Assembly: GCA_963794205.1 (NCBI GenBank)
Contig: CAWCCR010000007.1
Location: forward strand, 72,498-136,497
Direction: 5' to 3'
Origin: an uncultured Pseudomonadota bacterium
GTDB taxonomy: Bacteria; Pseudomonadota; Gammaproteobacteria; Xanthomonadales; Rhodanobacteraceae
DNA length: 64,000 bases
Shown here piece by piece: positions 21,508 through 43,197 of this stretch. The notes below the pieces were generated by a model that saw only the letters and a program-made list of their open reading frames with translations, was not told the origin of the DNA and did no database searches. Each line of letters opens with the position of its first letter. Positions within the stretch are counted from its first letter, which is position 1. The position numbers and the translations under genes were made by a program.

Positions 21508-21525
21508 AGCAGACAGGTGGCGGAA

Positions 21526-23882: not shown

Positions 23883-23906
23883 GGATGCCCCTGCGAGGAT
23901 CAAGAT

Positions 23907-23920
23907 TGGAAACGATTACA
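23907..23920. promoter_or_regulatory. Second LacI operator in the divergent GH1 / ABC-ATPase promoter
   Basis: TGGAAACGATTACA, 13/14 identical to the site at 6003-6016. Confidence 0.75.
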
Positions 23921-24014
23921 TGGCAGAATATCAGCAAAATCGCGCGCATCGAACCACCGCGTCGGTCTTGCCGGGAAGATGTGCCGCGCGACATACAGAC
24001 AAGGGGCAGGGCGG

Positions 24015-26333: not shown

Positions 26334-28742
26334 TCAGGGCCGCCGAGGTGCCGCCGGCCGCAGCGTCATGCGGTAGCGCGCGGGACCCGGCAGCAGCGGT
26401 GTCGGCTCGCCCCTGACCCAGGCCGCAAAGCCGGCGCCGTAGTAGGGCGACAGCGGGTTGTCGCTCTGGCCGCCGGGCATGTGCAGATAGCTGGCGGCCT
26501 CGTGGCCGGGCATGATGCCGAAGCGCTCGGAGGCACCGAAGCTCGGCGCCTGCACGCGCGGCATGTTGTTGTCGCCCGGCAGCTGGACATGCGGCATGTC
26601 GAGGAAGCGCGCCAGCCAGCCGGGCAGGGCGCGCGCCAGGGGCTGGTCGATCGCGGCGGTGTTGCGCCGGCCCCAGGTCTGCGCGGCGAGACCGCCCGGC
26701 CTGGCCGCATCCACGTCCGCCACCTGCAGCGCGCTGGCGGTCAGCAGTGCCTGCCAGTTCGGGTAACGCGGTGCCAGCAGGTGCATCGGCTGCTGCGTCA
26801 CCAGTGCCCAGACCGCGGCTTCGGCATCGCTGCCGGAGGGCCAGGCGAATCCGGGATAGCGGGCTTTCACCACGGCCACGAACGGCGCCAGGGCGTTCTG
26901 ATAGACGGCCGCGCGGAACGCGCGCACCAGACGGTAATCGACGCTGCCCACCGCGGCGCGGCCGCTCCAGGTGGCGGTCAGGTGCTCGAGTTCGGCCAGG
27001 CGCGGGTCGCGATTGCCGGCCAGCGTGTCGCGCAGCAGGCCGTACCAGGGCGTGAGGAAGCGCGCGCGGTCGTCGAGCTGGATCGCCAGCAGGTCGTCGG
27101 GCGCGAAGCGCCGGCGCGCCATCAGGTCGTCGCGCAACTGCTGCGCGCGCGCGCCGAGGTCGTAGCCGCCGTTGCCGACCAGCGCCAGTGCGGCGCCGCC
27201 GACCGTGCGGTTGTTGGCCGTCCACAGCCGGCCCGAAGGCGGGTCGATGATGCGCGGAAACTGCGCCGCCGGCAGCCAGCCGATCCAGCCGGTGCCGGGC
27301 CGCGACCAGTCGCCGGGCACGTCGGGATCGATGCCCTTGCGGATCGGGATGGCGTTGCCGGTCAGCGTCCAGCCGATGTGGCCGGCGCTGTCGCCGACGA
27401 CGAAGTTCTGCGGCGGCATGCCGAAGTCGGGCGCGATCGTCAGCGCGGCGGCGACGCTGCCGGTGTGTTCGAGCTGGAGGATATCGAGGTTGATGCCGCG
27501 CAGATGCTGCGCGGTCCAGTCCAGCGCCAGCGGCGTGCCGTCGAGGTCCTTGCCCATGATCGGGCCCCAGCGGGTGTCCTGCACATCCAGCGTGACCGGG
27601 TTGCCGCCCTTGACCGCGATCGTCTCGCGATGGGTCTGGATCCGCGCCCAGCCGCCGGGTACGCGGTAGCGCAGCGGGTCGGCGGGGTCGCGGATCACGC
27701 GCACCCAGTCCATCCAGTTGCCGTAGCTGTTGGTGAAACCCCAGGCGATGTGGCCGTTGCTGCCGGCGACCAGCGCCGGAGTGCCGGGCAGGGTGACGCC
27801 GTTGAGATCGATCCAGCGGCCCGGGTGACCGGGATCGGGATAGCGCATGCGCGCGCGGAACCAGATGTCGGGCACGCGCAGGGTCAGATGCATGTCGTCG
27901 GCGACGATCGCGGCGCCGCTGGCGGTGAGCCGTCCGGCGACCGCCATGTTGTTGCTGCCGGGGAGCGGCGCCGGCAGCGAAACCGCGGCCATGCGCGCCG
28001 CGGCCGGCATCCGGCGCAGGTCGTACACCGCAGCGTTCGGAATCGCCACCGCGGTACTGACGCTGCCGTCGAGCGCCGCTTCCCAGCGACCGTCGGGCTG
28101 CAGCAGGAAATCAGCCAGCGGACGCGGCAACGCGCCGCGCAGCTCCGCGATCCGCAGTGCGCGCGGATCGCTGCCGTCGGCGCTGAGGTCGAAGTACATC
28201 GCGTCGATCGCGAGGATCGTGTCCTCGGGCCGCCATGGCTGCGGATGCGCGCGCAGCAGCAGGTATTCCCATGGCCGCACGTCGAGCGCATTGAGGCCGG
28301 CGTTGACCCCGCGCGCATAGGCGTCCATCAGGGCGCGCTCGCCAGGCCGCATATTGGCGTAGAGGCGTTCAGCCTGCGCGCGGAAGCGATGCCGGCGATG
28401 ATTCTCGTCACGCGCCAGCGCCGCCGGGCCGACCAGCGCCGCCAGTTCGCCGGCGGCATCGCGGCGCATCAGGTCCATCTGGAAAAAACGTTCCTGACCA
28501 TGCACGAAGCCCAGTGCAAAGGCGAGATCGGCGCGGTTTTGCGCGGTCAGGCTGACCACGCCATCGCGATCACGGGTCACCGTCACCGGCGCCGCCAGTC
28601 CGCGCAGCGTCACGGTGCCGTCCAGGCGCGGCCGGCTGCCGGCCAGCAGCAGCCAGGCCATGGCCAGGGCAGCTGCCAGCAGAATCGGCGTCAGCGACAC
28701 CAGGGCATACAGTACGCGGCGCAGGCGCGGCAGCGGGTGCAT
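26334..28742 (-). CDS. Penicillin acylase / Ntn-hydrolase (S45) family
   Basis: N-terminal TM, GFVHGQERFFQMDL, beta-subunit start GSNN, DMHL, WGFTN, PGGQSDNP. Confidence 0.92.
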   Translation of the reverse strand: MHPLPRLRRVLYALVSLTPILLAAALAMAWLLLAGSRPRLDGTVTLRGLAAPVTVTRDRDGVVSLTAQNRADLAFALGFVHGQERFFQMDLMRRDAAGELAALVGPAALARDENHRRHRFRAQAERLYANMRPGERALMDAYARGVNAGLNALDVRPWEYLLLRAHPQPWRPEDTILAIDAMYFDLSADGSDPRALRIAELRGALPRPLADFLLQPDGRWEAALDGSVSTAVAIPNAAVYDLRRMPAAARMAAVSLPAPLPGSNNMAVAGRLTASGAAIVADDMHLTLRVPDIWFRARMRYPDPGHPGRWIDLNGVTLPGTPALVAGSNGHIAWGFTNSYGNWMDWVRVIRDPADPLRYRVPGGWARIQTHRETIAVKGGNPVTLDVQDTRWGPIMGKDLDGTPLALDWTAQHLRGINLDILQLEHTGSVAAALTIAPDFGMPPQNFVVGDSAGHIGWTLTGNAIPIRKGIDPDVPGDWSRPGTGWIGWLPAAQFPRIIDPPSGRLWTANNRTVGGAALALVGNGGYDLGARAQQLRDDLMARRRFAPDDLLAIQLDDRARFLTPWYGLLRDTLAGNRDPRLAELEHLTATWSGRAAVGSVDYRLVRAFRAAVYQNALAPFVAVVKARYPGFAWPSGSDAEAAVWALVTQQPMHLLAPRYPNWQALLTASALQVADVDAARPGGLAAQTWGRRNTAAIDQPLARALPGWLARFLDMPHVQLPGDNNMPRVQAPSFGASERFGIMPGHEAASYLHMPGGQSDNPLSPYYGAGFAAWVRGEPTPLLPGPARYRMTLRPAAPRRP

Positions 28743-28888
28743 CGGCGGGACCTGCATGGCGCGTGGGTTCCGGACGATCGGCAACGGAATGGCGCATGAT
28801 CTCCGAAATCCTGCGCCTGCGCGATGATGATCGCCGGAGCGGCGCAACGCCCCGTGAGGATGCATCGATGCCGAAATGTCTTGCTGGT

Positions 28889-29293
28889 ATGCGGACTGTG
28901 CGCTGCGGCCGCGGGTTCGCCGCCCTGCTGACGATCATGCTGTGTGGCTGCGCGGGTGCGGCGCCCGCGATCCCGCCGGCGGGCAGCGCCGGGCGGATCG
29001 CGCCCGCGCTGGTCATCGCCGCGCAACGACTGGCGGCGGGTGCGCCGCTGAGCGACTACGCGCAGGGACCCGTGCGTGCCGACGCGCACGGCCGCCTGCA
29101 GGTCTATGTGTCGGTTGATGCCGTCACGCCGGAGCATACGCAGGCGCTGCGCAACGCCGGGCTCGCCGGCGCGGAGCCCAGTGCGGCGATGGGGCTGGTG
29201 CAGGGCTGGGTGTCGCCAGGGCAGTTGCGCGATCTCGCCGCGCTGCCCTTCGTGACGCGCATCGCGCCGCCGCGCTACGCCCGCGCCCGCTGA
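28889..29293 (+). CDS. Small lipoprotein consisting of a subtilase-propeptide-like domain
   Basis: Lipobox LCGC; clear similarity to the prodomain of the adjacent subtilase (LAALPFVTRIAPPRYA vs LAALPQVTRITLPRYA). Confidence 0.75.
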   Translation: MRTVRCGRGFAALLTIMLCGCAGAAPAIPPAGSAGRIAPALVIAAQRLAAGAPLSDYAQGPVRADAHGRLQVYVSVDAVTPEHTQALRNAGLAGAEPSAAMGLVQGWVSPGQLRDLAALPFVTRIAPPRYARAR

Positions 29294-29317: not shown

Positions 29318-29346
29318 AAAAGGCGCCGGTCCTCCGGCGCCTTTTT
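29318..29346. terminator. Bidirectional intrinsic terminator
   Basis: AAAAGGCGCCGG-tcct-CCGGCGCCTTTTT between convergent genes. Confidence 0.85.
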
Positions 29347-29368: not shown

Positions 29369-31957
29369 TCAGCGGCGCAGGCTCACCCGCCCGCGGCGCA
29401 TCGCCTCCGCGGCGGCCAGCGCGCCCAGCGCCGCCAGCAGATCGAGGCTGATGGCACCGCCGCCGCCACTGCTCGGCGTTGGCGGCGGCGGTGGCGCCGT
29501 TACCGTCACGGTGCGCGTGGCCGCGGCGCTGGTGTTGAAGGTGGTGTTGGTGCAGGTCAACGTTGCGGTGTAAGTGCCAGCGGATGCATAGCTGACCGTC
29601 GTGCTGCCTTGCGTCGAACTGCCCGGATTGGCTCCATTGCCGAAAGCCCAGTTCAGCGTGACGTTGCCGGACGCGCCGTTGGCCGAGCAGCTGCCGCTGA
29701 AGTTGACCGAGCCGCCGGTCTGGATGCTGACGTTGCCGGTCGGTGTGCTGATCGTTGCCACCGGCGGCGGCGGATTGGTTACCGTGATCACCCGCGTGGC
29801 CGTGCTTGTGGTGCTGAACACGGTGTTGGTGCAGGTCAATGTTGCCGTATAGGTGCCGGTCGATGGATAAGTGACCGATACACTGCCTTGTGCCGACGTG
29901 CTCGGACTGGCTCCGCTGCCGAAACTCCAGCTCAGCGTGGTGCTGCCCGGCGCACCGTTGGTCGAGCAACTGCCGGCGAAGCTGATGGATTGACCGACGA
30001 AGATGCCGGTATTGCCGGACGGGGCACTGATCGTGGCGACTGGAGCGGATAGCGCAACGCCGGACTGGTACGCGTTGACGAGGCCATAGCCGTAGACCCC
30101 GTTGGGATTGCCGCCGCCATTGCTGGTGCCTGCGGTCAGCGGTTTCGCCCCGGCCTGCAGCATGGCGTAGGGATCCTTGCCCGGGTAGCCCTGCTCCAGC
30201 AGCGCCATGATCGCCGCGACGGCCTCCGAGGTGGCCGAGGTGCCGCAGAAGGTGGCGCTGGGCGGTGTGCCGCTGTTGGCGGTGCCGAACCCGCCGACGC
30301 CGGTCACCAGCACGCAGTCGACCGCGGTGAAATCGGGCTTTTGCCGCGAGCTGGTGCCGGTCGCGGGTTGCGAAAGGAACACCGGGCCTTGCGAGGCATA
30401 CGGCTCGATAGTGTCGTTGTTGTTCTGGGCGCTGGTCGCATCGATCGCGGTGGTGGTGATCTCGTACGGCGCCGGCAGCGCCGACTGGCCGTAGATGCTG
30501 CCGGCAGGCGTGTTCGGGACCAGCACGAAGCTGTGGTTGTTGGCGTACACGATCACTTTCAGGTGCTTACCGGGATTGCCCGTACCGTAGTAGATGTGCA
30601 GTTGCAACTGCTGCTGGCTGCTGCCGTTGTTGGTGTAACTGTTGCCCTGGACTGGCTGCGGGCCGGGCGTGTTGTTGGGTCCGGGTGTGCCGCTGAACAC
30701 GCAGCTGGTGGGCGAGGGCGGGCTGGCCGCACTGCCCAGGTTGATGCCCTGATTGCAGGCCAGCACGTTGCCGCTGGTGTCGGTCAGGAACACGTCGTAA
30801 TCGTTGGGATCGTTGGGCGTGCCGCTGGTGGGATTGGGAATCCAGGTGTCATCCCACTGCACCATGTAGGTGACCGTATCGCCCGCGGCAACCGGGAAGG
30901 TCATGCTGGTATTGGGGACGCCGGCGTTGCCGAAGTTCTGTGCCTGCGTGTACTTGACGCCGTTGATGGTGACGTTGACCGGCGTCGGGGTCCAGGTGCC
31001 GCTCCAGAACTGCTGCGCGTCGTTGCCGGCCGCGCTGGTCAGGCGGATGTTCGGGTGCGCGATGGCGAAGTTCTTCACCGCGGTGGCGAAGCCGCCGTCG
31101 GTGAACAGGGCCACGCCGGGGAATCCCAGATCATCGGCGACGATGTTGGGTGTGAAGCCGCCGGTGCCGGCGGCGAAGTCGTTGAGGCAGGTGACGAAAT
31201 CGACCGTGGTCGCCGGCCCGCAGAAGCCGAGCTTCGCACCCGGAGCCATGTCGTAGACGATCTCCATCATCGCCGTGCCCTCGAACCCCGAGCCCGGCAG
31301 CTTGGCGTCGACGTAGGGCGCCGGGCTGGTCGGCAGGTCGCCGGTGGCCTGGTCCTGGGCGATGTCGCCGGCGCCGTCGGAAATGATGCCGACCGAGATG
31401 CCGGATCCGTTGAGGCCGGTCGCCTGGCGGAATTGCGCCGTGCCGAGGATCTGGTCGCCCTGGGTGGTGACCGAGCCGCTGCGCGGCTGCGCGCCGACCG
31501 GCGGCAGATTGCGCCGTGGCACCGCGTAGCGCGGCAGGGTGATGCGGGTGACCTGCGGCAGCGCAGCCAGATGGTACAGCGCCGTCGCCGGCACCCAGGC
31601 CTGGACCACGCCGAGCTCGCTGCTGGCGCGGATGCCGGTTGCGCCCAGTGCGGTCAGCGCGCTCGTCGCGGGCGCGCCCGCGGCGCGGTCGAAGCCGAGA
31701 TAGACCTGCACCTGGCCGCTGCCGTTCCAGCGGGCTGCCAATGGGGCGGGGCCGCTGGGCTGCTGCTGTTCGGCCAGTGATCGGGTCATCATCGCGTGGG
31801 CCTGCGGCGTGCCTGAGGCCTGTGCGATCAGCGCAACCTGCGGTGCCAGCTTGGCGATCGCGGCAGCGGAGGGTGCGCTGTTCATGGCGTGCAGCGAGCC
31901 CGCGGCGAGCAGTGTCGTCAGTGCCAGCAGCAGCGCGGGTCGGAAGAGATGGCGCAT
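29369..31957 (-). CDS. S8-like subtilase with prodomain, two PKD domains and GlyGly-CTERM anchor
   Basis: Signal peptide; VGIISDG, FEGTAMMEIVYDMAPGA, SAAGND, FCGTSA; repeated WxFGxG...TYTATLT domains; C-terminus SSGGGGAISLDLLAALGALAAAEAMRRGR. Confidence 0.88.
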   Translation of the reverse strand: MRHLFRPALLLALTTLLAAGSLHAMNSAPSAAAIAKLAPQVALIAQASGTPQAHAMMTRSLAEQQQPSGPAPLAARWNGSGQVQVYLGFDRAAGAPATSALTALGATGIRASSELGVVQAWVPATALYHLAALPQVTRITLPRYAVPRRNLPPVGAQPRSGSVTTQGDQILGTAQFRQATGLNGSGISVGIISDGAGDIAQDQATGDLPTSPAPYVDAKLPGSGFEGTAMMEIVYDMAPGAKLGFCGPATTVDFVTCLNDFAAGTGGFTPNIVADDLGFPGVALFTDGGFATAVKNFAIAHPNIRLTSAAGNDAQQFWSGTWTPTPVNVTINGVKYTQAQNFGNAGVPNTSMTFPVAAGDTVTYMVQWDDTWIPNPTSGTPNDPNDYDVFLTDTSGNVLACNQGINLGSAASPPSPTSCVFSGTPGPNNTPGPQPVQGNSYTNNGSSQQQLQLHIYYGTGNPGKHLKVIVYANNHSFVLVPNTPAGSIYGQSALPAPYEITTTAIDATSAQNNNDTIEPYASQGPVFLSQPATGTSSRQKPDFTAVDCVLVTGVGGFGTANSGTPPSATFCGTSATSEAVAAIMALLEQGYPGKDPYAMLQAGAKPLTAGTSNGGGNPNGVYGYGLVNAYQSGVALSAPVATISAPSGNTGIFVGQSISFAGSCSTNGAPGSTTLSWSFGSGASPSTSAQGSVSVTYPSTGTYTATLTCTNTVFSTTSTATRVITVTNPPPPVATISTPTGNVSIQTGGSVNFSGSCSANGASGNVTLNWAFGNGANPGSSTQGSTTVSYASAGTYTATLTCTNTTFNTSAAATRTVTVTAPPPPPTPSSGGGGAISLDLLAALGALAAAEAMRRGRVSLRR

Positions 31958-32118: not shown

Positions 32119-32547
32119 ATGACAGCCTCATCGCGGCGGCAGCAGGGATTCACCCTGATCGAAATCATGGTGGTGGTAGTGATCATCGCCGTGCTGGCGA
32201 CGCTGATCCTGCCCAACGTCATCGGTCGCGCCGAGGACGCGCGGCTGGCCAAGGCCAAGGCCGACATCCGCGCGCTGGACTCGGCGCTGGCGATGTACCG
32301 GCTCGACAACGGCCACTATCCGTCCACCGACCAGGGCCTGCAGGCGCTGGTGAAAAAGCCTTCAGGCGACCCGCCGGCGCCCGACTGGCGCGCGGACGGT
32401 TACATCCGCACGCTGCCCGATGACCCCTGGGCGCATCCTTACGAGTATCTCAGCCCCGGCCAGCACGGTCCCTACGACTTGTGGTCCGATGGCCCGGACG
32501 GCGTGTCGGGAACCAGGGATGACATCCAGAGCTGGAACCTGAAGTAG
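32119..32547 (+). CDS. gspG: T2SS major pseudopilin
   Basis: QQGFTLIEIMVVVVII, YRLDNGHYPSTDQGLQALV, DPW, GPDG. Confidence 0.95.
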   Translation: MTASSRRQQGFTLIEIMVVVVIIAVLATLILPNVIGRAEDARLAKAKADIRALDSALAMYRLDNGHYPSTDQGLQALVKKPSGDPPAPDWRADGYIRTLPDDPWAHPYEYLSPGQHGPYDLWSDGPDGVSGTRDDIQSWNLK

Positions 32548-32555
32548 CGACGCGC

Positions 32556-33098
32556 GTGATCGCCGTACCCGCCGCAACCGCCACCGGACCCGCGTGCAGG
32601 CCGCAAGGCAGTGCCGGGTTTTCGCTGGTCGAGATGATGGTGGTGATCCTGATCATCGCGGTGATGACCAGCGTGGCGATGCTCAGCCTGTCGTTCGGCA
32701 GCCGTGATCGGGCCCGGCTCGCGGCCACGCAGCTGGCCGGCGTCCTGCGCAGCGCGCGGGAAGAAGCCGAGATGCAGGGGCGCAACCTCGCATTCGGTTT
32801 CTGGCAGCGAGGCTGGATCTGCTACCAGCTCGACGCCGCCGGTGCCTGGCAACCCCTGCTGGATGATCGCCTGCTGCGTCCGCGCACGCTCGACGACGGT
32901 CTCACGCTGACGCTGCGCCTGCAGGGCGAGCAAGTGCGGCTGGCCGCGCGGGCGCATTCCCATCCGCAGGTATTCGTGCTGTCCAGCGGCGAAATGGAGC
33001 CGTTCGTGCTGGAGCTGCGCGAGGCTGCCCGCAGCCGCGAACGGCTGACCGGCAGCGCGCTGGGCCAGATCACGCTGGAGAGCGAACATGCGCGCTGA
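32556..33098 (+). CDS. gspH: T2SS minor pseudopilin H
   Basis: AGFSLVEMMVVILII; PQVFVLSSGEMEPF; position after gspG. Confidence 0.88.
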   Translation: MIAVPAATATGPACRPQGSAGFSLVEMMVVILIIAVMTSVAMLSLSFGSRDRARLAATQLAGVLRSAREEAEMQGRNLAFGFWQRGWICYQLDAAGAWQPLLDDRLLRPRTLDDGLTLTLRLQGEQVRLAARAHSHPQVFVLSSGEMEPFVLELREAARSRERLTGSALGQITLESEHAR

Positions 33099-33486
33099 CG
33101 GTCCCGGCGTGCGGCGCGCGCACGGCTTCACGCTGCTCGAGGTGATGGTGGCGCTGCTGGTCGTCGCGCTGGGCCTGGCGGCGGCGGTGCAGCTGACCAC
33201 GCTGGCCGCTGACAACGCGCGAGCCCTGTCGCGGCGCACCGAGGCCGACTGGGTGGCGATGAACCGGCTGGGCGCGACGCAGCTGGCCGGCGCCTGGCCG
33301 GCGGACGGCAGCACCCAGGGCCACAGCGTCATGGCCGGCCGCACCTGGTATTGGCGTCAGCAGGTGCAGGGTGCCCCGCTGCCCAATCTGCGCGAGGTGG
33401 TGATCGAGGTGCGCGACCGGCCCGAAGGCCCTGCGCTGGCGACGCTGCATACCCTGGTCAGTCATGCCGCGAGCGGTCCGCCATGA
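33088..33486 (+). CDS. gspI: T2SS minor pseudopilin I
   Basis: HGFTLLEVMVAL; ADWVAMN; WYWRQ. Confidence 0.9.
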   Translation: MRADGPGVRRAHGFTLLEVMVALLVVALGLAAAVQLTTLAADNARALSRRTEADWVAMNRLGATQLAGAWPADGSTQGHSVMAGRTWYWRQQVQGAPLPNLREVVIEVRDRPEGPALATLHTLVSHAASGPP

Positions 33487-34079
33487 ACCGTGCCCGCGGC
33501 TTCACGCTGATCGAACTGCTGGTGGCTGTGGCGATCTTCGCCCTGATGGCGGCGCTGGCCTACGGCGGGCTCGCTACGCTGCTGCACCAGCGCGGCGAAC
33601 TCGAATCGCACTACCGCCGGTTGCACACGCTGCAGCGCGCCTATGCGCTGCTGCAGGCGGACTTCACGCAGGCCGCGCCGCGACCGGTGCGCGACGAACT
33701 GGGCGGTCCGCTGCCGGCGCTGCGCGGTGCGCCCGACGGCACGACCGTGGCGCTGTCACGCGACGGTTATCCGGACCCGGCCGGCGTGCGGCGCAGCGGA
33801 ATCATTCGCGTGCGCTACAGCCTCGACGGCCGGCGCCTGCTGCGCCTGCAGTGGCCGGTGCTCGACCGCGCGCCGGGCGAGACGCCGCCGCCCGACACCG
33901 TGCTCGATCACGTCGAGTCGCTGCGGTTCCGCTACGTCGATGCGCAGGGCAACGAACAATCCAGCTGGCCGCCGGCCGGCTCGGGCCCGCAGTCGCCCCT
34001 GCTGCCGCGCGCGGTGCGGGTGACGCTGAAGATGGACGGACTCGCGGGGTCGGTCACGTGGCTGTTCGTGCTGCCATGA
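33483..34079 (+). CDS. gspJ: T2SS minor pseudopilin J
   Basis: RGFTLIELLVAVAIFA; DFTQAAPRPVRD; WPVLD; LPRAV. Confidence 0.92.
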   Translation: MNRARGFTLIELLVAVAIFALMAALAYGGLATLLHQRGELESHYRRLHTLQRAYALLQADFTQAAPRPVRDELGGPLPALRGAPDGTTVALSRDGYPDPAGVRRSGIIRVRYSLDGRRLLRLQWPVLDRAPGETPPPDTVLDHVESLRFRYVDAQGNEQSSWPPAGSGPQSPLLPRAVRVTLKMDGLAGSVTWLFVLP

Positions 34080-35005
34080 ACGCGCCCCTTCGCCAGCGCG
34101 GCGTCGCGCTGCTGATCGCGCTGCTGGTGGTCGCCATCGCGGCGACGACGATGGTCTATCTGGCCTGGGACCAGACGCTCGCGATCCGCCGCAGCGAGGA
34201 CCGCATCGGACTGGATCGCGCCTGGGCGGTCGCGCTCGGCGCCGAAGCCTGGGCCGCGCAGGCGCTGGCCGACAACGCGCGCCAGCACGGCGGCGAGGTC
34301 GATCTGGCCCAGCCTTGGGCGCAGCCGCAGCGGCCGCAGATCTTCGGCGGCATCGAGGTCACCGGGCGGATCGAGGACCTGCAGGGCCGCTTCAACCTCA
34401 ACACCCTGGTCGCCGGCGCGCAGCCGGTCGCGATCGCGGTCACGCGCTACCGCGCGCTGCTGGCGACCCAGCAGCTGCCGTCCGATCTGGTCGCGCCGGT
34501 GATCGACTGGATCGATCCCGACAGCATGGCCAGCGGCAGCACCGGTGCCGAGGACGAGACCTACCTCGGACTCGCGCCACCGTATCGCGCGGCCAATCAG
34601 CCCTTGATCAGTGCCTCCAGCCTGCGTCTCGTCAGCGGCTACACGCAAGCCGTCTATGCACGCATCGCGCCCTGGGTCACCGCGCTGCCGGGCGCAACCG
34701 CCATCAACGTCAACACCGCGCCGCTGCCGGTGCTGATCGCGCTGGGCCTGAGTCCGGCGCAGGCGCGGGCGGTGGTCGTGCTGCGCGCGAAGCAGCCGTT
34801 TTCCACCCTGCAGCAGTTTCTCGCCAGCCCGCCGTTGCAGACGGCGGCGGTCGATCCGAGCCTGCTCGGCGTCGGCAGCCAGTACTTTCTGGTGCACATC
34901 GAGGTCCGCCTGGGTCGCCTGCGCGCCACCCTGGCAAGCGTGCTCGAAGTCGGCAATGGCGGTAAGGTCCGCGTTCTGCTGCGCACGCGTAACACCATGC
35001 CCTGA
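34076..35005 (+). CDS. gspK: T2SS minor pseudopilin K
   Basis: QRGVALLIALL; IEDLQGRFNLN; DWIDPD; INVNTAP. Confidence 0.92.
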   Translation: MNAPLRQRGVALLIALLVVAIAATTMVYLAWDQTLAIRRSEDRIGLDRAWAVALGAEAWAAQALADNARQHGGEVDLAQPWAQPQRPQIFGGIEVTGRIEDLQGRFNLNTLVAGAQPVAIAVTRYRALLATQQLPSDLVAPVIDWIDPDSMASGSTGAEDETYLGLAPPYRAANQPLISASSLRLVSGYTQAVYARIAPWVTALPGATAINVNTAPLPVLIALGLSPAQARAVVVLRAKQPFSTLQQFLASPPLQTAAVDPSLLGVGSQYFLVHIEVRLGRLRATLASVLEVGNGGKVRVLLRTRNTMP

Positions 35006-36246
35006 TGGATACCCTGCTGCTGCGCTGGATCGACGATGAGCATGCCGCCTGGCGCCTCGCAGGCGTGTCCGGTCGCGGCAGTCTGGCCGATGCCGCACCG
35101 CTGGCGCGTGGACGGCGCGTGCTGCTGCTGGTGCCCGGCGAGGACGTGCTGCTGGCATCTGCGGCGATGCCCAGCCGCAAACCGGCGGAGATCGCGCGCG
35201 CGTTGCCCTACGCGCTGGAGGAGTGGCTGCTGGAACCGCCGGAGACCCAGCACTTCGCCTGGCAGCGCAGCGTGTCCGGCGTGGCGGCCGCGGTCGTCGC
35301 GCGCGCCACGATCGGGCATTGGCTTGAGCGTCTCGACGAAGTCGGCATCGAACCCGATGTGCTGCTGCCGGACCTGCTGGCCCTGCCGTGGGTCGCGGGC
35401 CGCTGGAGCCTGTTCTGCGAATCGGGCGAAGCGGATGCGCGCGTGCTCGTGCGCAGCGGTCTGCGCGACGGCCTGGCCTGCACGCGAGCGAGCCTGCCGC
35501 TGGTGCTCGCCACGCTGCTGCAGCGCACCCCGGATGCGGAGCGCCCGACCGGAATCGATCTCCGGGGCGTCGTCGATGACGCCGGCGACGGCCCGCCATC
35601 CGCGGACCGTGCCGATTCCGCCCGCGGCATCGATGCCCTCGCGGCCGGGGCGGGTCTGCCGGTTACCCGCCAGCGCTCATCCGCGGCGCTGCTTGATCTC
35701 GCGGACGAATTCACGCTGCCCGCCGATTTCAACCTGCTGCAGGGTGCCTACGCCCCGCGGCGCGCGCAGGCGCGACGCAACGGCCCGCGCCGTGCCGTGG
35801 CGATCGCCGCGGCGTTGTGGCTGGTGAGCGCATTTGCCTACGCCGGCGTGCACGCGGCGGTCCTGGCGCGGGAGTCGCGCGTGCTGCAGGGCGCGATCGA
35901 CACGGTGTTCCGCGGCGCCGTGCCGGGCGAGCACCGCATCGTCGATGCCCGCGCGCAGCTGCAACAGGCGTTGAGCGCCGCGGAAGTCGGTCGCGGCACC
36001 GGTGGCCCGATCGGCCTGCTGGCGGCCGTCGCCGATGCCCGTCTCGACGCGACCGGCGTGCGTCTGCAGCGCATCGAATACCGCGATGGCAGGCTTGACC
36101 TGCTGCTGCAGGCGGAGCGTGCCGCCGCACTGGAAGCGGCGCGGCACGCGTTGGCGGCGCAGGGCCTGAACGCCGAGTTGCGCGATGTCGGCAGCGACGG
36201 CGGTCACGCGCAGGGTCGCATCCACATTGCCGGAGCGACGCGATGA
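35005..36246 (+). CDS. gspL: T2SS inner-membrane platform protein L
   Basis: ALPYALEE, LPDLLALP, FNLLQGAY followed by a TM segment. Confidence 0.88.
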   Translation: MDTLLLRWIDDEHAAWRLAGVSGRGSLADAAPLARGRRVLLLVPGEDVLLASAAMPSRKPAEIARALPYALEEWLLEPPETQHFAWQRSVSGVAAAVVARATIGHWLERLDEVGIEPDVLLPDLLALPWVAGRWSLFCESGEADARVLVRSGLRDGLACTRASLPLVLATLLQRTPDAERPTGIDLRGVVDDAGDGPPSADRADSARGIDALAAGAGLPVTRQRSSAALLDLADEFTLPADFNLLQGAYAPRRAQARRNGPRRAVAIAAALWLVSAFAYAGVHAAVLARESRVLQGAIDTVFRGAVPGEHRIVDARAQLQQALSAAEVGRGTGGPIGLLAAVADARLDATGVRLQRIEYRDGRLDLLLQAERAAALEAARHALAAQGLNAELRDVGSDGGHAQGRIHIAGATR

Positions 36247-36737
36247 AAACCTGGTGGATGCAGTTGGCTGCCCGCGAACGACTGCTGGTCGCATTCGGCG
36301 CGGCGGTGCTTGCGGGCGGTCTGATCTATGCGCTGATCTGGCATCCGCTGGCTCAGGACATCGCGCGCAACGAGGCACGCGTTGCGCAGCAGCGCGCGGA
36401 TCTCGTTTGGATGCAGCAGGCCGCGCTCCGGATGCGCGCGCTGCAGTCGCAGGGCGGCGGTCAGTCCGCGCCGCAGGCAACCGCCGGGCTGCCGTTGCGC
36501 GCCGTGCTGGATGCCGCCCTGCGTGCACAGGGCCTCGATAGCGCGGTGGCCGAGCGCGCGCCGGCCGGGGACGGCAGCATTCGTCTCACGCTCAAGGCGG
36601 TGCCCTTCGATGCCCTGCTGCGCTGTCTTGCCAGCCTGCAGACCGAAGGTTTGCAGGTGCGGACATTCGATCTGGATCGCGTCGGCGCAGGGCAGGTGGC
36701 AGGCTCGCTGCAGGTAGCGCGCGTTGCCGGGAGTTGA
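36243..36737 (+). CDS. gspM: T2SS protein M
   Basis: WWxQLAARER followed by TM; VPFDALL. Confidence 0.88.
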   Translation: MKTWWMQLAARERLLVAFGAAVLAGGLIYALIWHPLAQDIARNEARVAQQRADLVWMQQAALRMRALQSQGGGQSAPQATAGLPLRAVLDAALRAQGLDSAVAERAPAGDGSIRLTLKAVPFDALLRCLASLQTEGLQVRTFDLDRVGAGQVAGSLQVARVAGS

Positions 36738-36825
36738 ACGCAGGCGATGGGTGCAGACGTGGTCCATGCACGACGCCACGCCGGGGCAGTTGCATATATT
36801 CCGCCGGCCGCATTGCTGCGCAGGC

Positions 36826-38035
36826 TCACTTCACCAGCTGATCCAGCTGGAAGATCGGCAGCAGGATCGCCAGCACGATGCTGAAAACGATCATGCCCAT
36901 GACCACGATGGTCAGCGGTTCGAACAGGGCCAGCGCGGTGCCGATGGTGGCCGAGGTTTCGCGTTCCTGCTGCTCGGCCGCACGCCAGAGCATGTCCTCG
37001 AGATTGCCGCCGGTCTCGCCGCTGGCGATCAGGTACACCGCCATCGGCGGGAAGTAGCCGCTGTGGTCCAGCGCGGTGGCGACGCCGGAACCCTCGCGCA
37101 CGCGCGCCGCGACCTCCTGCAGGGCGTGGCGCATCGGCAGGCTGCCGATCACCTGACTGGCGATACCCAGGCCTTCGAGCAGCGGTACGCCGCTGGCGGC
37201 GAGGATGCTGAGCGTGCGCGTGAAGCGCGCCGTCTCGATGCCGCGCACCAGCCGGCCGATCAATGGCAGGCGCAGCACCAGGCGCTGCCAGCGCGCGCGC
37301 ACGGCGTCCTCGCGCAGCGCGCGGCGGATCAGCCAGGCGACGGCGATCAGCACGATGACCAATGCGATCCCCCAGTGTCTGAGGAACCCGCTGGTCGCGA
37401 TCAGCACCCGCGTCAGCAGCGGCAGCTCGGCGTGCATGGTGGCGAACACCTGGACGATCTTCGGCACCACGTAGCCGAGCAGCCCGGCCAGGATGACCAG
37501 CGACATGCTGACCAGGAATCCGGGGTAGATCAGCGCCTGCTGCACCCGCTGCTGCATGGCCTGGCGCGCCTCGGTGTAGTCGGCCAGCCGCGCCAGCACC
37601 GGATCGAGCCGGCCCGACTGCTCGCCGGCGGCGACGGTGGCACGGAACACCTCGTCGAACACGCCGGGAAAGTCGGCCATGCCGACCGCCATGCCGTGAC
37701 CCTCGACCACGCGCGCGCGTACACCGTGCAGCACCCGCGCGATGCGCGGGTGGCGCGCCTGCCGCGCGGCGGTCTGCAGCGCGTCGGCCACCGGCGCGCC
37801 GGTCGCCAGCAGGGTCGCGATCTGGCGCGTCGAGCAGCGCCAGCTCGTCCGCACGCAGACGTGTGCGGCGGCTGCGCCGGGGACCACTGCCACGCTCCTC
37901 GACCGCCTCGACCTCCAGCGGCAGCAGGCCGCCGTCGCGCAGCAGCTGGCGGATCTGGCGTGCGGTGTCGGCTTCGAGCACGCCCTTGCGGTGATGCCCC
38001 TGCGGGTCGAGCGCGACATATTCGAAGGCCGGCAC
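36826..38035 (-). CDS. gspF: T2SS protein F, +1 frameshift near 37831
   Basis: N-terminus MPAFEYVALD...DELALL in one frame; TRQIATLL, AGEQSGRL, SGETGG, FEPL, AILLPIF in another. Confidence 0.9.
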
Positions 38036-38039
38036 CGGT

Positions 38040-39551
38040 TCACTCCGCGCTGCGGGTGACGCGCAGCAATTCTTCCAGCGCGGTCGCGCCGGTCAGCACC
38101 AGGCGCACGCCGTCGGCGCGGATGCCGGGCACCTGCCGCCGTGCATGCAGCTCGAGATCCGCTTCGGCCGCGCCGTCATGGATCATGCGGCGCAGCGCGT
38201 CATCGATCGGTGTCACCTCGTAGATGCCGCTGCGCCCGAGGTAGCCGGCGCCATGGCAGGTCGGGCAGCCGACCGGATGGAACAGCATTGCCGGCGCGTC
38301 GCCGAGGCCGAGCTCGGCGCGCTCGGTGGCATCCGCCGGCTGCGCGCGCCGGCAGTGAGGGCAGAGCAGACGCACCAGCCGCTGCGCGGCGACCCCGATC
38401 AGGGTCGAGGCGAGCAGATAGGGCTCCACGCCCATGTCACGCAGGCGCGCCACCGCACCGATTGCGGTGTTGGTATGCAGGGTCGAGAGCACCAGGTGGC
38501 CGGTCAGGCTGGCCTGGACCGCGATCTCGGCGGTCTCGAGATCACGGATCTCGCCGACCATCACCACGTCCGGATCCTGGCGCAGGATCGCGCGCAGACC
38601 GCGCGCGAAGCTCATGTCCACCTTGGGGTTGACCTGGGTCTGGCCGATGCCGTCGATGAAGTACTCGATCGGATCCTCGACGGTGAGGATGTTGCGGCGG
38701 CGGTCGTTGAGTTCGGCCAGCACGGCATACAGGGTGGTGGTCTTGCCCGAGCCGGTCGGACCGGTGACCAGCAGGATGCCGTGCGGCTGGCGGATCAGCC
38801 GCACCAGACGCGCGCGAGTGTCCGGGTCCATGCCCAGGCCGCCGAGATCGAGGCGGCCAGCCTGGCGGTCGAGCAGGCGCAGCACCACGCGCTCGCCGTG
38901 GCCGGAGGGCAGGGTGGACACGCGCACGTCCACCGGGTGCCCGGCCACGCGCAGGCTGATGCGGCCGTCCTGCGGCAGGCGCTTCTCGGCGATGTCGAGA
39001 CGCGCCATCACCTTGATGCGCGAGACGATGGTGCCGGCCAGCGCGCGTGGCGGTTCGAGGATCTCGCGCAGGGTGCCGTCCACGCGCAGGCGCACCGACA
39101 GGCGGCCCTCGAACGGCTCGATGTGCACGTCGGAGGCACCCTCGCGCACCGCCTGGGCGAGGATCGCGTTGATCAGGCGGATGATCGGCGCGTCGTCCTG
39201 GCTCTCCAGCAGATCCTCGGGTTCGGGCAGGGCCGAGGCCGCGGCCGCGAGATCGATGTCCTCGCCCAGGTCCTGCATCATCGCCTGCGCGCCGCCGGGA
39301 CCGGTGTCGCCGTAGCGGCGCGTCAGCTGGCGTTCGAACTCGGCGTCGTCGAGGCGCTCGAGCTGGAGCGGCCGGCCCAGCGTGCGCGCCAGCTCCGCCA
39401 GCACGCGCGGGTCGGGCAGGCCGCGGTGGCGCACGCGGGCTCGGGCCACGTCCACGTCCACCAGTACGCCGTGGCGCTTGGCGTAACCGTAGCCGACCGC
39501 GACGTCCGCTGCGGTGACGTGGCCGGTGTCGCTGGCTTCAGCGCGATCCAT
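38040..39551 (-). CDS. gspE: T2SS ATPase E
   Basis: ASDVHIEP, LDIAEKRLPQDG, GPTGSGKTT, LRQDPD, CPHC..CPTC. Confidence 0.95.
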   Translation of the reverse strand: MDRAEASDTGHVTAADVAVGYGYAKRHGVLVDVDVARARVRHRGLPDPRVLAELARTLGRPLQLERLDDAEFERQLTRRYGDTGPGGAQAMMQDLGEDIDLAAAASALPEPEDLLESQDDAPIIRLINAILAQAVREGASDVHIEPFEGRLSVRLRVDGTLREILEPPRALAGTIVSRIKVMARLDIAEKRLPQDGRISLRVAGHPVDVRVSTLPSGHGERVVLRLLDRQAGRLDLGGLGMDPDTRARLVRLIRQPHGILLVTGPTGSGKTTTLYAVLAELNDRRRNILTVEDPIEYFIDGIGQTQVNPKVDMSFARGLRAILRQDPDVVMVGEIRDLETAEIAVQASLTGHLVLSTLHTNTAIGAVARLRDMGVEPYLLASTLIGVAAQRLVRLLCPHCRRAQPADATERAELGLGDAPAMLFHPVGCPTCHGAGYLGRSGIYEVTPIDDALRRMIHDGAAEADLELHARRQVPGIRADGVRLVLTGATALEELLRVTRSAE

Positions 39552-41649
39552 GCGGCGGAGCGGCGCTGGTGGCGGGCGCCGGCGTGGTGGACGCAGCGGG
39601 CGCGGGAGCCGTACCGGCCCTGGCGGGAGAGTCCGCACCGCTGATGGCCGGCGCCGGCGCGGATCGGGCCCGTGGCAGATTCGGCGGCGCCGGAGCGAAA
39701 TGCTGCAGGTTCTCCGGCAGCGGCGGCATCGGCGTTGGCGCATCGCTCTGCGAACCCTGGATCGGGGCGTTCTGCTGCTGGCGCAGCACGCGGTACTTCT
39801 CGGCGGTGTAGGCGTTGGCCAGCGCCTGGTTCGAAAGGATCACCGGATGCAGAAAGATCATCAGGTTCTGCTTCTGCCGTTCGCGCGAGGTCGAGCGGAA
39901 CAGGTGCCCGACCAGCGGCAGGCTGCCCAGCAGCGGCACCTTCTGCACCGAGTCCTTGTAGGTGTCCTGGATCAGCCCGCCCAGCACGATGATCGAGTCG
40001 CTGTCGGTGATCACCACGGTCTTGATCTGGCGCTTGTTGGTAATCAGGTCGGTGGCACCGGTGACCGATGGCGCCAGGCTCGACACCGTCAGCTCAAGCT
40101 TGAGGCGCACGCTGTCGCCCATGTTGATCTGCGGCGTCACCTTGAGGGTGATGCCGATGTCCTTGCGCTCGATGGTCTGGAACGGGCTGCTGACCACGCC
40201 GCCGCCGGTCGGCGTCTGCGTGGTGCTGTAGCTGCCGGTCAGGAAGGGCACGTTCTGGCCGACGACGATCTCGGCCTCCTTGTTGTCCAGCGTCAGCAGG
40301 CTGGGCGTGGACAGGATGTTGGTCGCGGAGTTGGACGACAGCGCGTTCAGCAGCAGGCCGTAGCGGGTCTGCCCGGCGCGATTGCTGCCGAAGCCCAGCA
40401 GCAGGCCGGGCTGGCCCGCCAGCGCCCCCGCGGTCGCCACCGAGCCCGCGGCCAGCGTGGTCAGCGGCAGCGCGCCGTTGCTGAAATTGGTCAGCGCCGC
40501 CGGACCCTGGTTGGATCCGCGGTTGGGCAGCACGGCGATCTGCGCGCCGAGTTGCCGCGAGAGGTCGCCCGAGACCTCGGCGATGATCGCGTCGATCAGC
40601 ACTTCCTTGGGCCGGATATCGAGCTGGCGCACGATCTCGCGCAGATCGCGCAGCTTGTCGGGCGGCCCGGTCAGGATCAGCGCATTGCTGGCGCTGTCGG
40701 CCTGGATGTTGACCGGGCTCTCGGCCACGGACCTGGACTTGCCGTCGGCCGACTGCTGGTGCGAGACGATCTCGCCCAGCACCTTCGCGATGTCCCCGGC
40801 CTTGGCATAGCGCAGGAACACGACGCGCGAATTGCCGGCCTGCGGCAGTGGCACGTCGAGGCGGCCGACCAGGGCACGCACGCGCGCCTGGGCTGCGCTG
40901 TCACCGGCCAGCAGGAGGCTGTTGGTGCGCCGATCGGCCACCACGCGCGCCTGCGGCAGGGCGGACTCGGCGCCCGCCGGCGGCTCCTGCAGCTCGTTGA
41001 TGGTGCGGGCGACGTCCTCGGCCGACGCGTGTTGCAGCTGGATCACGCTGATGCCGGCCTCGCCGGGGCGGTCGAGTTGGGCGACCAGGCGCATCACCCG
41101 CGCGACGTTGTCCGCGCGGTCGGTGACGATCAGCATGTTGCCGGGCGGATAGGCCGCCAGCAGCGCCTGCGGCGGCAGCAGCGGGCGCAGCATCGTCGCC
41201 AGCTGCGTCGCGCCGACGTTCTGCACGCGGATGACGCGGGTGACCATCTCCTCGCCCTGGCCATGCAGCTGCAGGCTCTGGCGGGCGTTGATCGCCGGCA
41301 CGATCTTGACCACCGCGCCGGCCGGCACCGCCGAGTAGCCATACACGTCCAGCACCGACAGGAACACCTGGTACAAGGCGTCACGGTCCATCGGCGAGGA
41401 AGAGACCACGGTGACGTTGCCACGTACGCGCGGATCGACCACGAAGTTGATGCCGGTGGCCTTGGACACGGTGTCGATCAGGGTCCGGATGTCGACGTCG
41501 CGCAGATTGAGGGTGACCTCGTCGCCGGCCGCCGCCGCAGCCGCTGGCGCCGGAGTGTTCGGCACATGCTGCGCGGCCGCCCGCAATGGCAGCGCGAGCA
41601 CGAGTACGAGCATCAGCAGACCGGACGACAGGGCAGTGCGCTGGGTCAT
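39538..41649 (-). CDS. gspD: T2SS secretin D
   Basis: N0 domain NFVVDPRVRG; EVLIDAIIAEV; LSTPSLLTLDNKEAEIVVGQNVP; KVPLLGSLP. Confidence 0.95.
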   Translation of the reverse strand: MTQRTALSSGLLMLVLVLALPLRAAAQHVPNTPAPAAAAAAGDEVTLNLRDVDIRTLIDTVSKATGINFVVDPRVRGNVTVVSSSPMDRDALYQVFLSVLDVYGYSAVPAGAVVKIVPAINARQSLQLHGQGEEMVTRVIRVQNVGATQLATMLRPLLPPQALLAAYPPGNMLIVTDRADNVARVMRLVAQLDRPGEAGISVIQLQHASAEDVARTINELQEPPAGAESALPQARVVADRRTNSLLLAGDSAAQARVRALVGRLDVPLPQAGNSRVVFLRYAKAGDIAKVLGEIVSHQQSADGKSRSVAESPVNIQADSASNALILTGPPDKLRDLREIVRQLDIRPKEVLIDAIIAEVSGDLSRQLGAQIAVLPNRGSNQGPAALTNFSNGALPLTTLAAGSVATAGALAGQPGLLLGFGSNRAGQTRYGLLLNALSSNSATNILSTPSLLTLDNKEAEIVVGQNVPFLTGSYSTTQTPTGGGVVSSPFQTIERKDIGITLKVTPQINMGDSVRLKLELTVSSLAPSVTGATDLITNKRQIKTVVITDSDSIIVLGGLIQDTYKDSVQKVPLLGSLPLVGHLFRSTSRERQKQNLMIFLHPVILSNQALANAYTAEKYRVLRQQQNAPIQGSQSDAPTPMPPLPENLQHFAPAPPNLPRARSAPAPAISGADSPARAGTAPAPAASTTPAPATSAAPPHGSR

Positions 41650-41737
41650 GGCGTGACCGCAAAGGAAAGGAGGATCGTAGCAGCCGGTCGCGGTCGCGCC
41701 GGAGCCCGCGGCAACTGGCGGCAAGCAGGCGCCGGCA

Positions 41738-42586
41738 TCAGGGCGCCTGCGGGCCGAGATTGAGCGTGCGGCCGTCGCGCATCACGGTCAGCGTCGGCGG
41801 CTGGCCATCGCGCAGCCGCCCCTGAACCGCCTGCATGGCCTGCACCGGGCCGCCCAGCGGCGTGCCGTCGATCGCGGTGATCACGTCGCCCGGCCGCAGG
41901 CCGAGGCGCACCAGCAACACCGGATTGACGCCCGGCAACACGCGGTAGCCGGCGATGCGGCCGTCCTTGATCACCGGCTGGGCGCGGCCCAGCGCGCCGA
42001 AGTTCAGCATGCCGCCACGGGTCGGAGGCCAGGGTGCCGGCCCGGATGCGCCGTTCGCGCCGGATGGCGGCGTGCCTGTCGCGGGTGACCCGGCTTCCAT
42101 CATCGCCTCGGGACCCTCGATGGCGGGCGGCGATTCCGCGCCGCTCGATACCGGTCTGGGCAGCGTCAGCGCGGCGACCCCGGCCGCGGTACGCAGCAAT
42201 ACCCGGTCGGGATAGACCGCAGCCACCACCACGCCGTCGGGCAACCTCTCGCCGCTGGCGTAGGCGCGTGCCGGCACACTGGCGGAGCCGGCCAGCAGGG
42301 CATAGCCGCGACCGTCATGCACCGCATAGACGCCTTCAAGGCGCAGGCCGAGCAGCGCCGCCGCCGCCGCGCTGCCGCCACCGCCGAACAGGTGCGCGGC
42401 CAGCAGGCGATCGAGCGGACTGGACGACGGCGCACTGGAGGACATGGCCACGGACGGCGTCGGATGCAGCGCCGCACGCACGAGCAGGCCGCTGCGCAGC
42501 AGGTTCCACGCTGCCAGCAATCCCAGCAGCAAAGCCGCGACCCAGAGCAGGTGCGGCAGCCGGCGCGTGGAGGATCCCCAGCGCAT
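41738..42586 (-). CDS. gspC: T2SS protein C with PDZ domain
   Basis: TM, HLFG, LRLEGV, VYPDRVLL (HR domain); GLRPGDVITAIDG (PDZ). Confidence 0.85.
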   Translation of the reverse strand: MRWGSSTRRLPHLLWVAALLLGLLAAWNLLRSGLLVRAALHPTPSVAMSSSAPSSSPLDRLLAAHLFGGGGSAAAAALLGLRLEGVYAVHDGRGYALLAGSASVPARAYASGERLPDGVVVAAVYPDRVLLRTAAGVAALTLPRPVSSGAESPPAIEGPEAMMEAGSPATGTPPSGANGASGPAPWPPTRGGMLNFGALGRAQPVIKDGRIAGYRVLPGVNPVLLVRLGLRPGDVITAIDGTPLGGPVQAMQAVQGRLRDGQPPTLTVMRDGRTLNLGPQAP

Positions 42587-42600
42587 GTGCAATGGCGACT

Positions 42601-43197
42601 TCAGCGACCTTCCCCCGCGCTGCGCGTCGCGCGCAGCCTCAGCCATCCCAGACGCAGCAGGATAAAGGCCGCGCCCCCCAGCGCGCCATACAGATGCGCC
42701 TGCGGCACCACCGCGCCGCCGAGATCGCGCGTTTCGCCAGGCAGGGCGCCGGCATGCAGGGTCCAGCCGATCACAGCCGCCATGCCCAGCAGCAGCGCGC
42801 CGGCGTACAACGGGCGTTGATGCCATTCCAGCAGCGCACCGGCACAGAACAGGCCGAACAGTACCCCCGAGATGCCGACGTACCACTCGACCTGCGGACT
42901 GAAGACGAGCAGGCCGAGACCGACTGCCGTGGCGCAGGCCAGGATCAGCACCAGCCAGGTACGATCGCGCATCCGCGGTGCGAACAGGCCCCAGATCAGG
43001 AACAGGCCGGCCAGATCGCGCAGCAGATGCACCCAGCCCAGATGCACCAGGTTGCCCGTCAGCAGGCGCCAGAGCTGGCCGTGCAGCACCGCGGCACGCC
43101 GGTACTCGAGCGCATCGCGCAGGCCCAGCGCCTGCAACGCGAGCAGCAGGGCCGCCAGCAGCAGCGGCAGGCGCCATACGCGCAGCATGCGGCGCAC
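42601..43197 (-). CDS. Rhombosortase (rhomboid-family intramembrane protease)
   Basis: GQLWRLLTGNLVHLGWVHL, YVGISGVL (catalytic Ser), AHLYGALGG (catalytic His); ~200 aa multi-TM; GlyGly-CTERM target nearby. Confidence 0.88.
   Translation of the reverse strand: MRRMLRVWRLPLLLAALLLALQALGLRDALEYRRAAVLHGQLWRLLTGNLVHLGWVHLLRDLAGLFLIWGLFAPRMRDRTWLVLILACATAVGLGLLVFSPQVEWYVGISGVLFGLFCAGALLEWHQRPLYAGALLLGMAAVIGWTLHAGALPGETRDLGGAVVPQAHLYGALGGAAFILLRLGWLRLRATRSAGEGR

Follow-up and report, generated by a model that had tools for sequence, protein, structure and literature searches.

The prodomains built into subtilase precursors are described as both chaperones and inhibitors of their own enzymes (PMC10580911). 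Free-standing inhibitors or mimics of this propeptide (Inhibitor I9) type include Pleurotus POIA1, the yeast peptidase B inhibitor, Arabidopsis propeptide-like inhibitor 1, Toxoplasma MIC5 and Plasmodium SUB1-ProM (PMC6993865). For such eukaryotic stand-alone mimics, the available text of the same source reports no significant sequence similarity to propeptides and suggests convergence (PMC6993865). The concept of an inhibitor encoded next to its protease has further precedents in potempins, ORF2 and Spi. Potempins of Tannerella forsythia, such as PotC, which goes with the subtilase mirolase, are reported to inhibit the protease and to protect the outer membrane (PMC9890683). ORF2 of Aeromonas sobria is described as an external chaperone of the propeptide-deficient protease ASP and as its inhibitor, with an IC50 of 84 nM (PMC5638518), and Spi of Streptococcus pyogenes as a propeptide analogue encoded beside SpeB (PMC2873492).

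We analyzed a stretch of 64,000 nucleotides (hereafter the window) from an uncultured bacterium of the Rhodanobacteraceae, in which a small lipoprotein gene converges with a subtilase gene. The lipoprotein resembles the I9 mimics in being a separate small gene product with a propeptide fold and predicted tail-in-cleft binding, and SUB1-ProM is also encoded near subtilase genes (PMC6993865). Unlike the I9 mimics listed above, it is bacterial, carries a lipobox, is 38% identical to the cognate prodomain, has a Glu-type target and has no PF05922 match. With potempins it shares a small lipoprotein gene next to a cognate secreted protease. The upstream position of the potempin genes recurs in eight tandem pairs elsewhere (loci L043, L044, L050, L051, L055, L059 and, twice, L065), whereas the window pair is convergent. 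Potempins are five- or eight-stranded beta-barrels that insert an inhibitory loop and are not prodomain homologues, in contrast to the four-stranded alpha/beta sandwich modelled for the window lipoprotein.

ORF2, too, is encoded by a gene of its own beside that of the subtilase on which it acts in trans, and its C-terminal region is proposed to lie at the catalytic site. ASP, however, is kexin-like and propeptide-less, whereas the window protease keeps its prodomain; compared by description and by the absent Pfam match, ORF2 is closer to two loci with split genes (L105 and L120, see below) than to the window pair. Spi is, like the window lipoprotein, a bacterial propeptide-analogue inhibitor whose gene lies next to the protease, but its target is a C10 cysteine protease, its fold is unrelated and the available text mentions no lipid anchor (PMC2873492). 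The built-in prodomains (3afg, 3whi, 3bgo, 4i0w) share their fold with the lipoprotein; they are made in cis and degraded. The lipoprotein, in contrast, is a trans product with a predicted anchor and without a helical segment of 11-13 residues. The part of the literature covered yielded no publication on such a pairing, in which a bacterial lipoprotein derived from a prodomain lies next to a pro-subtilase that is itself intact, and a search by sequence turned up nothing on the family.

A free-standing homologue of the subtilase prodomain

The lipoprotein gene (28868..29293, plus strand) stands alone, encodes 141 aa and ends with the TGA at 29291-29293. The first-pass annotation had placed the open reading frame at 28889..29293. 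The frame is real, but ATG 28889 is the second in-frame ATG, and the start is more likely the ATG at 28868, seven codons earlier, as judged from a Shine-Dalgarno-like GAGGA (28856..28860, plus strand) 7 nt 5' of it and from the length of 141 aa found in 15/20 close homologues. Comparable purine tracts precede the same start at loci L003 and L004. GC at third codon positions is 0.88 in the lipoprotein frame, 0.87 in the protease gene and 0.57 in the in-frame upstream extension; on this measure and on homologue lengths, longer forms (GTG 28763, 165 aa) were rejected.

A predicted type II signal peptide (28868..28951, plus strand), with a basic n-region and a hydrophobic h-region, ends in the lipobox L25-C26-G27-C28 (LCGC, 28940-28951), whose Cys is invariant in alignments. 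Cys28 is the predicted lipidated residue, with Ala at +2. The folded region follows at 28994..29290 (plus strand), and its last codons (29276..29290, plus strand) encode the C-terminal tail Y137-R141, which is predicted to lie in the protease cleft from its stop at Tyr+4 and from the contacts of the complex model, both described below.

A hairpin of 12 bp with an A-run and a T-run (29318..29346) lies between the converging genes, with a z of -2.84 over 82 nt, and is a candidate bidirectional intrinsic terminator. It is absent from the list of the terminator scan; a comparable 3' hairpin is present at L003 and L004 and absent at L002. No sigma-70 promoter was found in the promoter scan. Because the genes converge, lipoprotein and protease are on separate transcripts, and the source genome (85% complete) holds a single copy of each. 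A penicillin amidase family gene (26334-28757, minus strand) is divergent from the lipoprotein gene, a position kept in three congeneric genomes (G005, G010 and G012). Further away, the stretch at 17911-25136 reads, from ORF translations only, as a sugar-utilisation cluster with large glycoside-hydrolase-like, glucokinase-like, beta-glucosidase-like and ABC ATPase-like genes.

The small protein is a free-standing homologue of the prodomain of the neighbouring subtilase. BLASTP of the lipoprotein against the 862-aa protease aligned 46/122 identical residues (38%) with an E of 2e-12, and a local alignment scored 166, where shuffled sequences (n=2000) averaged 39 and reached 80 at most. The alignment ends at the last residue of the lipoprotein and residue 148 of the protease. 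These results bear out what had been read from the sequence by eye: all four paired blocks are present, the small frame ends where the similarity ends, it has its own LCGC lipobox, and the prodomain that had been placed at about 31520-31860 was located at 31514..31858 (minus strand, residues about 34-148), from the alignment and the model. A joint lipoprotein/prodomain profile matches 118/121 proteases. In Pfam and NCBIfam, no family matched the small lipoprotein. PF05922 (Inhibitor I9) matched neither it nor seven homologues, in searches whose HMMER filters discard weak matches, and a profile search of PDB sequences gave chance matches only (tubulin-complex and lysine-tRNA ligase chains).

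The AlphaFold2 model of the lipoprotein (mean pLDDT 79; mostly 89-98 over residues 41-130, low in the signal region) comprises N-terminal helices and a four-stranded alpha/beta core. Compared with 48,161 solved chains, its top eight rows were all subtilase prodomains (Z 8.1-6.2), including Tk-SP (3afg; Z 8.1, rmsd 3.6, 87 aligned), pro-subtilisin E (3whi; Z 7.2, rmsd 1.7, 61 aligned) and BPN' (3bgo; Z 7.0, rmsd 2.8, 64 aligned); POIA1 followed with Z 5.2. Each Z value is middling, and we base the assignment of a subtilase-prodomain (I9-like) fold on all the top values belonging to one class together with the sequence homology. Foldseek gave no match at E <= 0.001, its first match being the CspB prodomain (4i0w) with E 0.02.

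Conservation, end point and linkage of the lipoprotein family

Out of 7,997 proteins scored in a profile search, at least 138, with lengths of 74-280 aa, belong to the family. A lipobox pattern of our own making, as distinct from a dedicated predictor, fits 113 of the 120 listed for inspection; four of the seven misses are fragments of 83-97 aa, and none of the 113 lipoboxes has Asp at +2. The end of the protein is equally fixed: 118/121 lipoproteins terminate directly after the fourth residue beyond the conserved Tyr of a Pro-x-Tyr motif (Tyr+4), a count anchored on that motif, which the search pattern itself required. Of the 121, 86 end in Arg, 20 in His and 8 in Tyr. In the proteases, 118/121 have the motif, and Tyr+4, the predicted self-cleavage position, is Lys or Arg in 100/118 and is followed by a low-confidence linker. 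The helical segment of 11-13 residues that the lipoproteins lack is conserved in the cognate prodomain, and fixed letters also part the two groups (R-x-D in lipoproteins vs R-W-N in prodomains; Q-G-W vs Q-A-W).

Over 12 non-independent pairs, dN/dS of the lipoprotein is 0.17-0.32 in the core and 0.28-0.47 for the whole gene; for the protease, measured in two pairs, it is 0.19-0.21 in the prodomain and 0.10-0.14 in the catalytic region. A quick tree, with neither outgroup nor bootstrap, was built on 118 columns from random draws of 45 of the 117 lipoproteins and 45 of the 114 prodomains, and one branch with an SH-aLRT of 100 parts the two groups. Since the window lipoprotein clusters with other lipoproteins and not with the prodomain of its neighbour, the split is old. 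A recent local duplication as the origin of the lipoproteins was rejected on the same grounds. The suggestion that the pair derives from a domain duplication thus holds as to prodomain homology, but the event is old and family-wide, not local. Orthologues and purifying selection, whose lack had been named beforehand as refuting the idea, were both found. Judged from these comparisons, the lipoprotein is real, conserved and ancient.

Homologues include proteins named Metallibacterium, so the window probably stems from this genus or one near it. In one subgroup (P0204-P0242), the last strand of many lipoproteins is preceded by one more Cys (26% Cys at position 128). A sample of 400 genomes of the phylum gave three weak matches. 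One is locus L033, described below; the other two were read as lysine-tRNA ligase false positives from their resemblance to the chance matches in the PDB. Unnamed Atlas clusters resemble the family (scores 0.92-0.93, 130-164 shared features) and serve as leads only; a further Atlas cluster (score 0.84), in which 54% of the putative lipoproteins carry Inhibitor_I9, hints that similar proteins of Actinomycetota are already annotated. The range of the family beyond Gammaproteobacteria rests on these leads and on L105 and L120.

Among the 16 genomes of the genus, the protease was found in 14 and the lipoprotein in 12, and all 12 with the lipoprotein also have the protease, in keeping with the proposed co-occurrence with Glu-type subtilases. 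The protease occurs without a lipoprotein match in G006 (99% complete) and in G007 (75%, where the contig ends beside the gene), and neither gene was found in G001 (68%) and G009 (72%). The small lipoprotein had no match in 25 other genomes of the family or order. The genes converge in the source genome (G000) and in G002, G005, G010, G012 and G013, and are non-adjacent in the other six of the 12 (G003, G004, G008, G011, G014 and G015); G014 has one lipoprotein gene and two protease paralogues. The eight tandem pairs named above come from other Gammaproteobacteria; there, both genes share a strand and the lipoprotein gene immediately precedes that of the protease. The convergent arrangement, first noted at this locus, therefore occurs in other genomes too, but as one of three layouts. 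Two of the tandem pairs share one locus (L065:1580-7317), where each protease has its own upstream lipoprotein.

Metagenomic loci (n=79) were screened by exact DNA motifs and ORF lists, a procedure that misses divergent copies. Among the 21 close protease loci, picked by catalytic motifs, the lipoprotein motif was present in 12 and absent in nine, some of which are cut short; L063 and L071, which were read, have the protease and no adjacent lipoprotein copy. The 58 distant loci were covered by the motif screen, and four of them were read.

The lipoprotein lineage can also occur with prodomain-less enzymes. At L105:741-2977 and L120:3800-5721, a gene for a prodomain-like homologue overlaps the protease start by 4 nt, and the protease is Glu-type and prodomain-less, its own signal peptide leading straight to the catalytic domain. 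That this hydrophobic signal sits between the two parts speaks against a sequencing frameshift. Both homologues match the lipoprotein family (hhalign probability 99%, E 5e-18 and 7e-18), carry its GRIQVY and QGW signature, and extend beyond Tyr+4, one by 10 and the other by 17 residues. By analogy with Aeromonas ORF2, this arrangement suggests folding in trans as the natural reading of their role. A classical Asp-His-Ser subtilase that lacks an evident signal peptide is followed, at L033:1471-3078 (G319), by a 77-aa ORF, also without one, that has a weak Inhibitor_I9 match (E 0.036, below the cut-off); the locus is possibly a cytoplasmic version of the pairing. Glu-type subtilases at L083:3806-6133 and L099:2885-5170 have no prodomain between signal region and catalytic domain, and their upstream ORF encodes a Pro/Gly/Cys-rich protein of roughly 400 aa.

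Partner protease, export surroundings and predicted complex

The partner gene (29369..31957, minus strand) encodes a Glu/Asp/Ser-type subtilase precursor of 862 aa, identified from domain matches, fold and model. Its order is signal peptide, prodomain, catalytic domain with a beta-rich insertion, two PKD domains and a tail, and self-cleavage is predicted after Arg148. The catalytic region (residues 160-636; 30050..31480, minus strand) was delimited from conserved residues and the subtilase fold. The PKD domains (29498..30046, minus strand) match PF18911 and PF00801 in two stretches, and the GlyGly-CTERM-like sorting tail (29372..29473, minus strand) is tripartite, with a Gly-rich motif, a hydrophobic helix and a basic end. 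PF00082 is annotated on most protease homologues and has no match in the window copy. The precursor has a subtilase fold, with CspA, CspB and CspC (E about 1e-14) and subtilisins as nearest solved structures at 12-15% identity; no characterised member or close solved structure of the Glu/Asp/Ser group was found, the best folds being 13-15% identical. A second conserved basic site in the linker (residues 156-160, about 31478-31492, minus strand; Arg159 in 81/121) is a possible secondary trimming site.

Motif positions in the protease follow the subtilisin motifs. The Asp-His-Ser triad is absent: Glu226 stands in the His motif (119/121), Asp194 is variable (87/121), and Asp275, Asp276, Asn312 and Ser574 are invariant (121/121). 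Such near or full invariance of Glu226, Asp275/276, Asn312 and Ser574 is as would be expected of an active protease. In sedolisins (S53), Glu and Asp lie on the same helix in an E-x-x-x-D pattern, which was ruled out here, where E226 is followed by G-T-A-M. The residues of the window protease fit a second variant subset of subtilases reportedly described by Siezen et al. in 2007, a study that PMC9549277 cites.

A type II secretion cluster with a rhombosortase gene (32119..43188) adjoins the protease gene. The gspG gene is divergent from the protease; gspG and gspC were identified by Pfam (T2SSG, T2SSC) and the other gsp genes from ORF translations only. Directly upstream of gspC, the rhombosortase gene (42607-43188, minus strand) matches TIGR03902 with 141 bits (cut-off 84). 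Surface display of Vibrio VesB is reported to require the trio of GlyGly-CTERM, rhombosortase and type II secretion (PMC6219818), and by analogy the protease likely undergoes processing by this rhombosortase, reaches the surface through the neighbouring type II system and stays bound there. We keep this route at likely because TIGR03501 does not match the tail of the window protease and matches only 4/60 family members. One match to the GlyGly-CTERM model lies elsewhere, at G000:C7:307190.

The complex model with the catalytic domain that the first-pass annotation had proposed as a check was computed for protease residues 160-636 and lipoprotein residues 38-141. It scored 0.93, vs 0.01 for the best control, on a scale where the mark is reached by 116/157 solved and 2/215 mismatched pairs, counts that are approximate for the alignments used. 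Contacts agree between runs to 97% or more, with a pLDDT of 91-92 for the partner. In the model, the lipoprotein tail is predicted to lie in the catalytic cleft. The interface includes lipoprotein residues 135-141 and, in the protease, Glu226 and residues 276-282, 309-312 and 572-574, and also takes in the N-terminal helices of the lipoprotein and the insertion domain of the protease (residues 361-473). Ala138 contacts protease residues 248-250, 253-254 and 277-279, and Arg139 contacts 277-279; we read these contacts as P4 and P3, which would put Arg141 at P1; the contact list names no partner for Ser574. In the unbound model, where the tail is of low confidence, the position matched to residue 141 is two residues short of the chain end in the POIA1, PCSK9 and CspB prodomains, so that the P1 register rests on the predicted complex and the sequence. 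The score may reflect likeness to the similar subtilase-propeptide complexes already solved, and the prediction does not tell inhibitor from chaperone.

Proposed role of the lipoprotein and competing explanations

The reading that we favour, with a probability of roughly 0.6, is that the lipoprotein is an envelope-anchored, product-like, dedicated tight-binding inhibitor of the adjacent subtilase, which would cap again any enzyme that becomes active ahead of export and likely protects the cell envelope from it. In favour of this are the fixed end point, the lipobox and the prodomain that the protease itself keeps. After Sec export and lipidation at Cys28, an Ala/Pro tether of roughly 14 residues would hold the folded domain on a membrane face, probably the periplasmic one. 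The protease would be exported, fold on its own prodomain and cleave itself after the Lys/Arg at Tyr+4 (Arg148 here). The mature enzyme would be processed by rhombosortase and reach the surface through the type II system, as VesB does, and any that shed its prodomain before exit would be re-capped. Since the lipoprotein stops at the equivalent of P1, it would resemble a cleavage product once bound and offer the enzyme no further bond to cut. A basic P1 preference is predicted for the protease. Speaking against this reading are the last residue of part of the lipoproteins (His in 20, Tyr in 8), the protease without a lipoprotein match in G006, the non-adjacent genes in six of the 12 genomes and the convergent ones here, the nine close metagenomic loci that show no lipoprotein motif, the split genes at L105 and L120, the sorting tail that escapes TIGR03501, and the Glu in place of the His of subtilisins, with which the activity of the protease is itself presumptive. 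The gene would go back to a single ancient event, in which a prodomain was split off or duplicated, and would have persisted since then as a lineage of its own.

Considerably less probable is a foldase or secretion escort in trans. In this role, the lipoprotein would associate in the periplasm with the protease as it folds; the protease would need it to fold or refold, or to be passed on to the type II system, and its inhibition would be transient and secondary. The pairing of a lipoprotein relative with a prodomain-less Glu-type subtilase at L105 and L120 speaks for such a role, as do the type II cluster adjoining the protease and an interface predicted to extend over the insertion domain. 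Membrane-bound chaperones of type II substrates are reported to be encoded beside their effectors (PMC4713064; compare Acinetobacter CpaB and LipB), and Aeromonas ORF2 to fold as well as inhibit ASP (PMC5638518). However, the window protease and 118/121 relatives keep a full prodomain, which is modelled with high confidence in the precursor and would occupy the same site during folding, so that a second foldase is not obviously needed. The lipoproteins also stop at Tyr+4, where the split homologues run on, and in G006 and L071 the protease has no detected or adjacent lipoprotein. A place on the outer surface, where the lipoprotein would tune the anchored protease or block the same-family protease of neighbours, seems less probable again. 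By the sorting rule of E. coli lipoproteins, the lack of Asp at +2 in all 113 lipoboxes is compatible with the outer membrane, and a single lipoprotein gene serving two paralogues in G014, as well as unlinked genes in six genomes, would suit such a shield, as would the outer-membrane location of the potempin inhibitors (PMC9890683). Against it, no genome (0/12) has the lipoprotein without the protease, as a general shield might, and an inhibitor displayed permanently next to a surface enzyme would cost the cell that enzyme's activity.

We consider it very improbable that the lipoprotein is a non-inhibitory tether or scaffold, holding the enzyme or a weak pseudo-protease at the membrane through the prodomain site as in the retained prodomains of Csp proteins. 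The likeness of the precursor to CspA, CspB and CspC and the replaced His and variable Asp194 would agree with this, but conservation is complete or almost so at the remaining catalytic positions (Glu226, Asp275/276, Asn312, Ser574), the protease carries a membrane tail itself, and the lipoprotein tail occludes the cleft in the predicted complex. A decayed local duplicate or functionless chance ORF, which small size and the lack of Pfam and NCBIfam matches might suggest, has next to no probability in view of at least 138 homologues, a core dN/dS of 0.17-0.32, a separate branch (SH-aLRT 100) and the conserved lipobox and end point.

We put at about even odds the broader proposal that these proteins form an undescribed class of prokaryotic inhibitors, prodomain-turned-lipoproteins whose chain stops at the self-cleavage residue and which watch over the export of surface-anchored Glu/Asp/Ser subtilases. 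With the same lineage supplying the prodomain in trans to prodomain-less enzymes, one family would comprise chaperones in cis, chaperones in trans and anchored inhibitors. In the available text of the source, subtilase inhibitors of the free propeptide-like kind are described from eukaryotes (PMC6993865); here, the sequences of more than 100 unannotated bacterial proteins still show descent from the cognate prodomain. The double pair at L065 is a natural test of cognate specificity. The pair offers a candidate inhibitor and a predicted basic P1 preference for the Glu/Asp/Ser subtilase group. It is a small, testable system for how a Gram-negative cell may control an exported protease in the periplasm, and a model for the separation of the chaperone and inhibitor roles of a prodomain.
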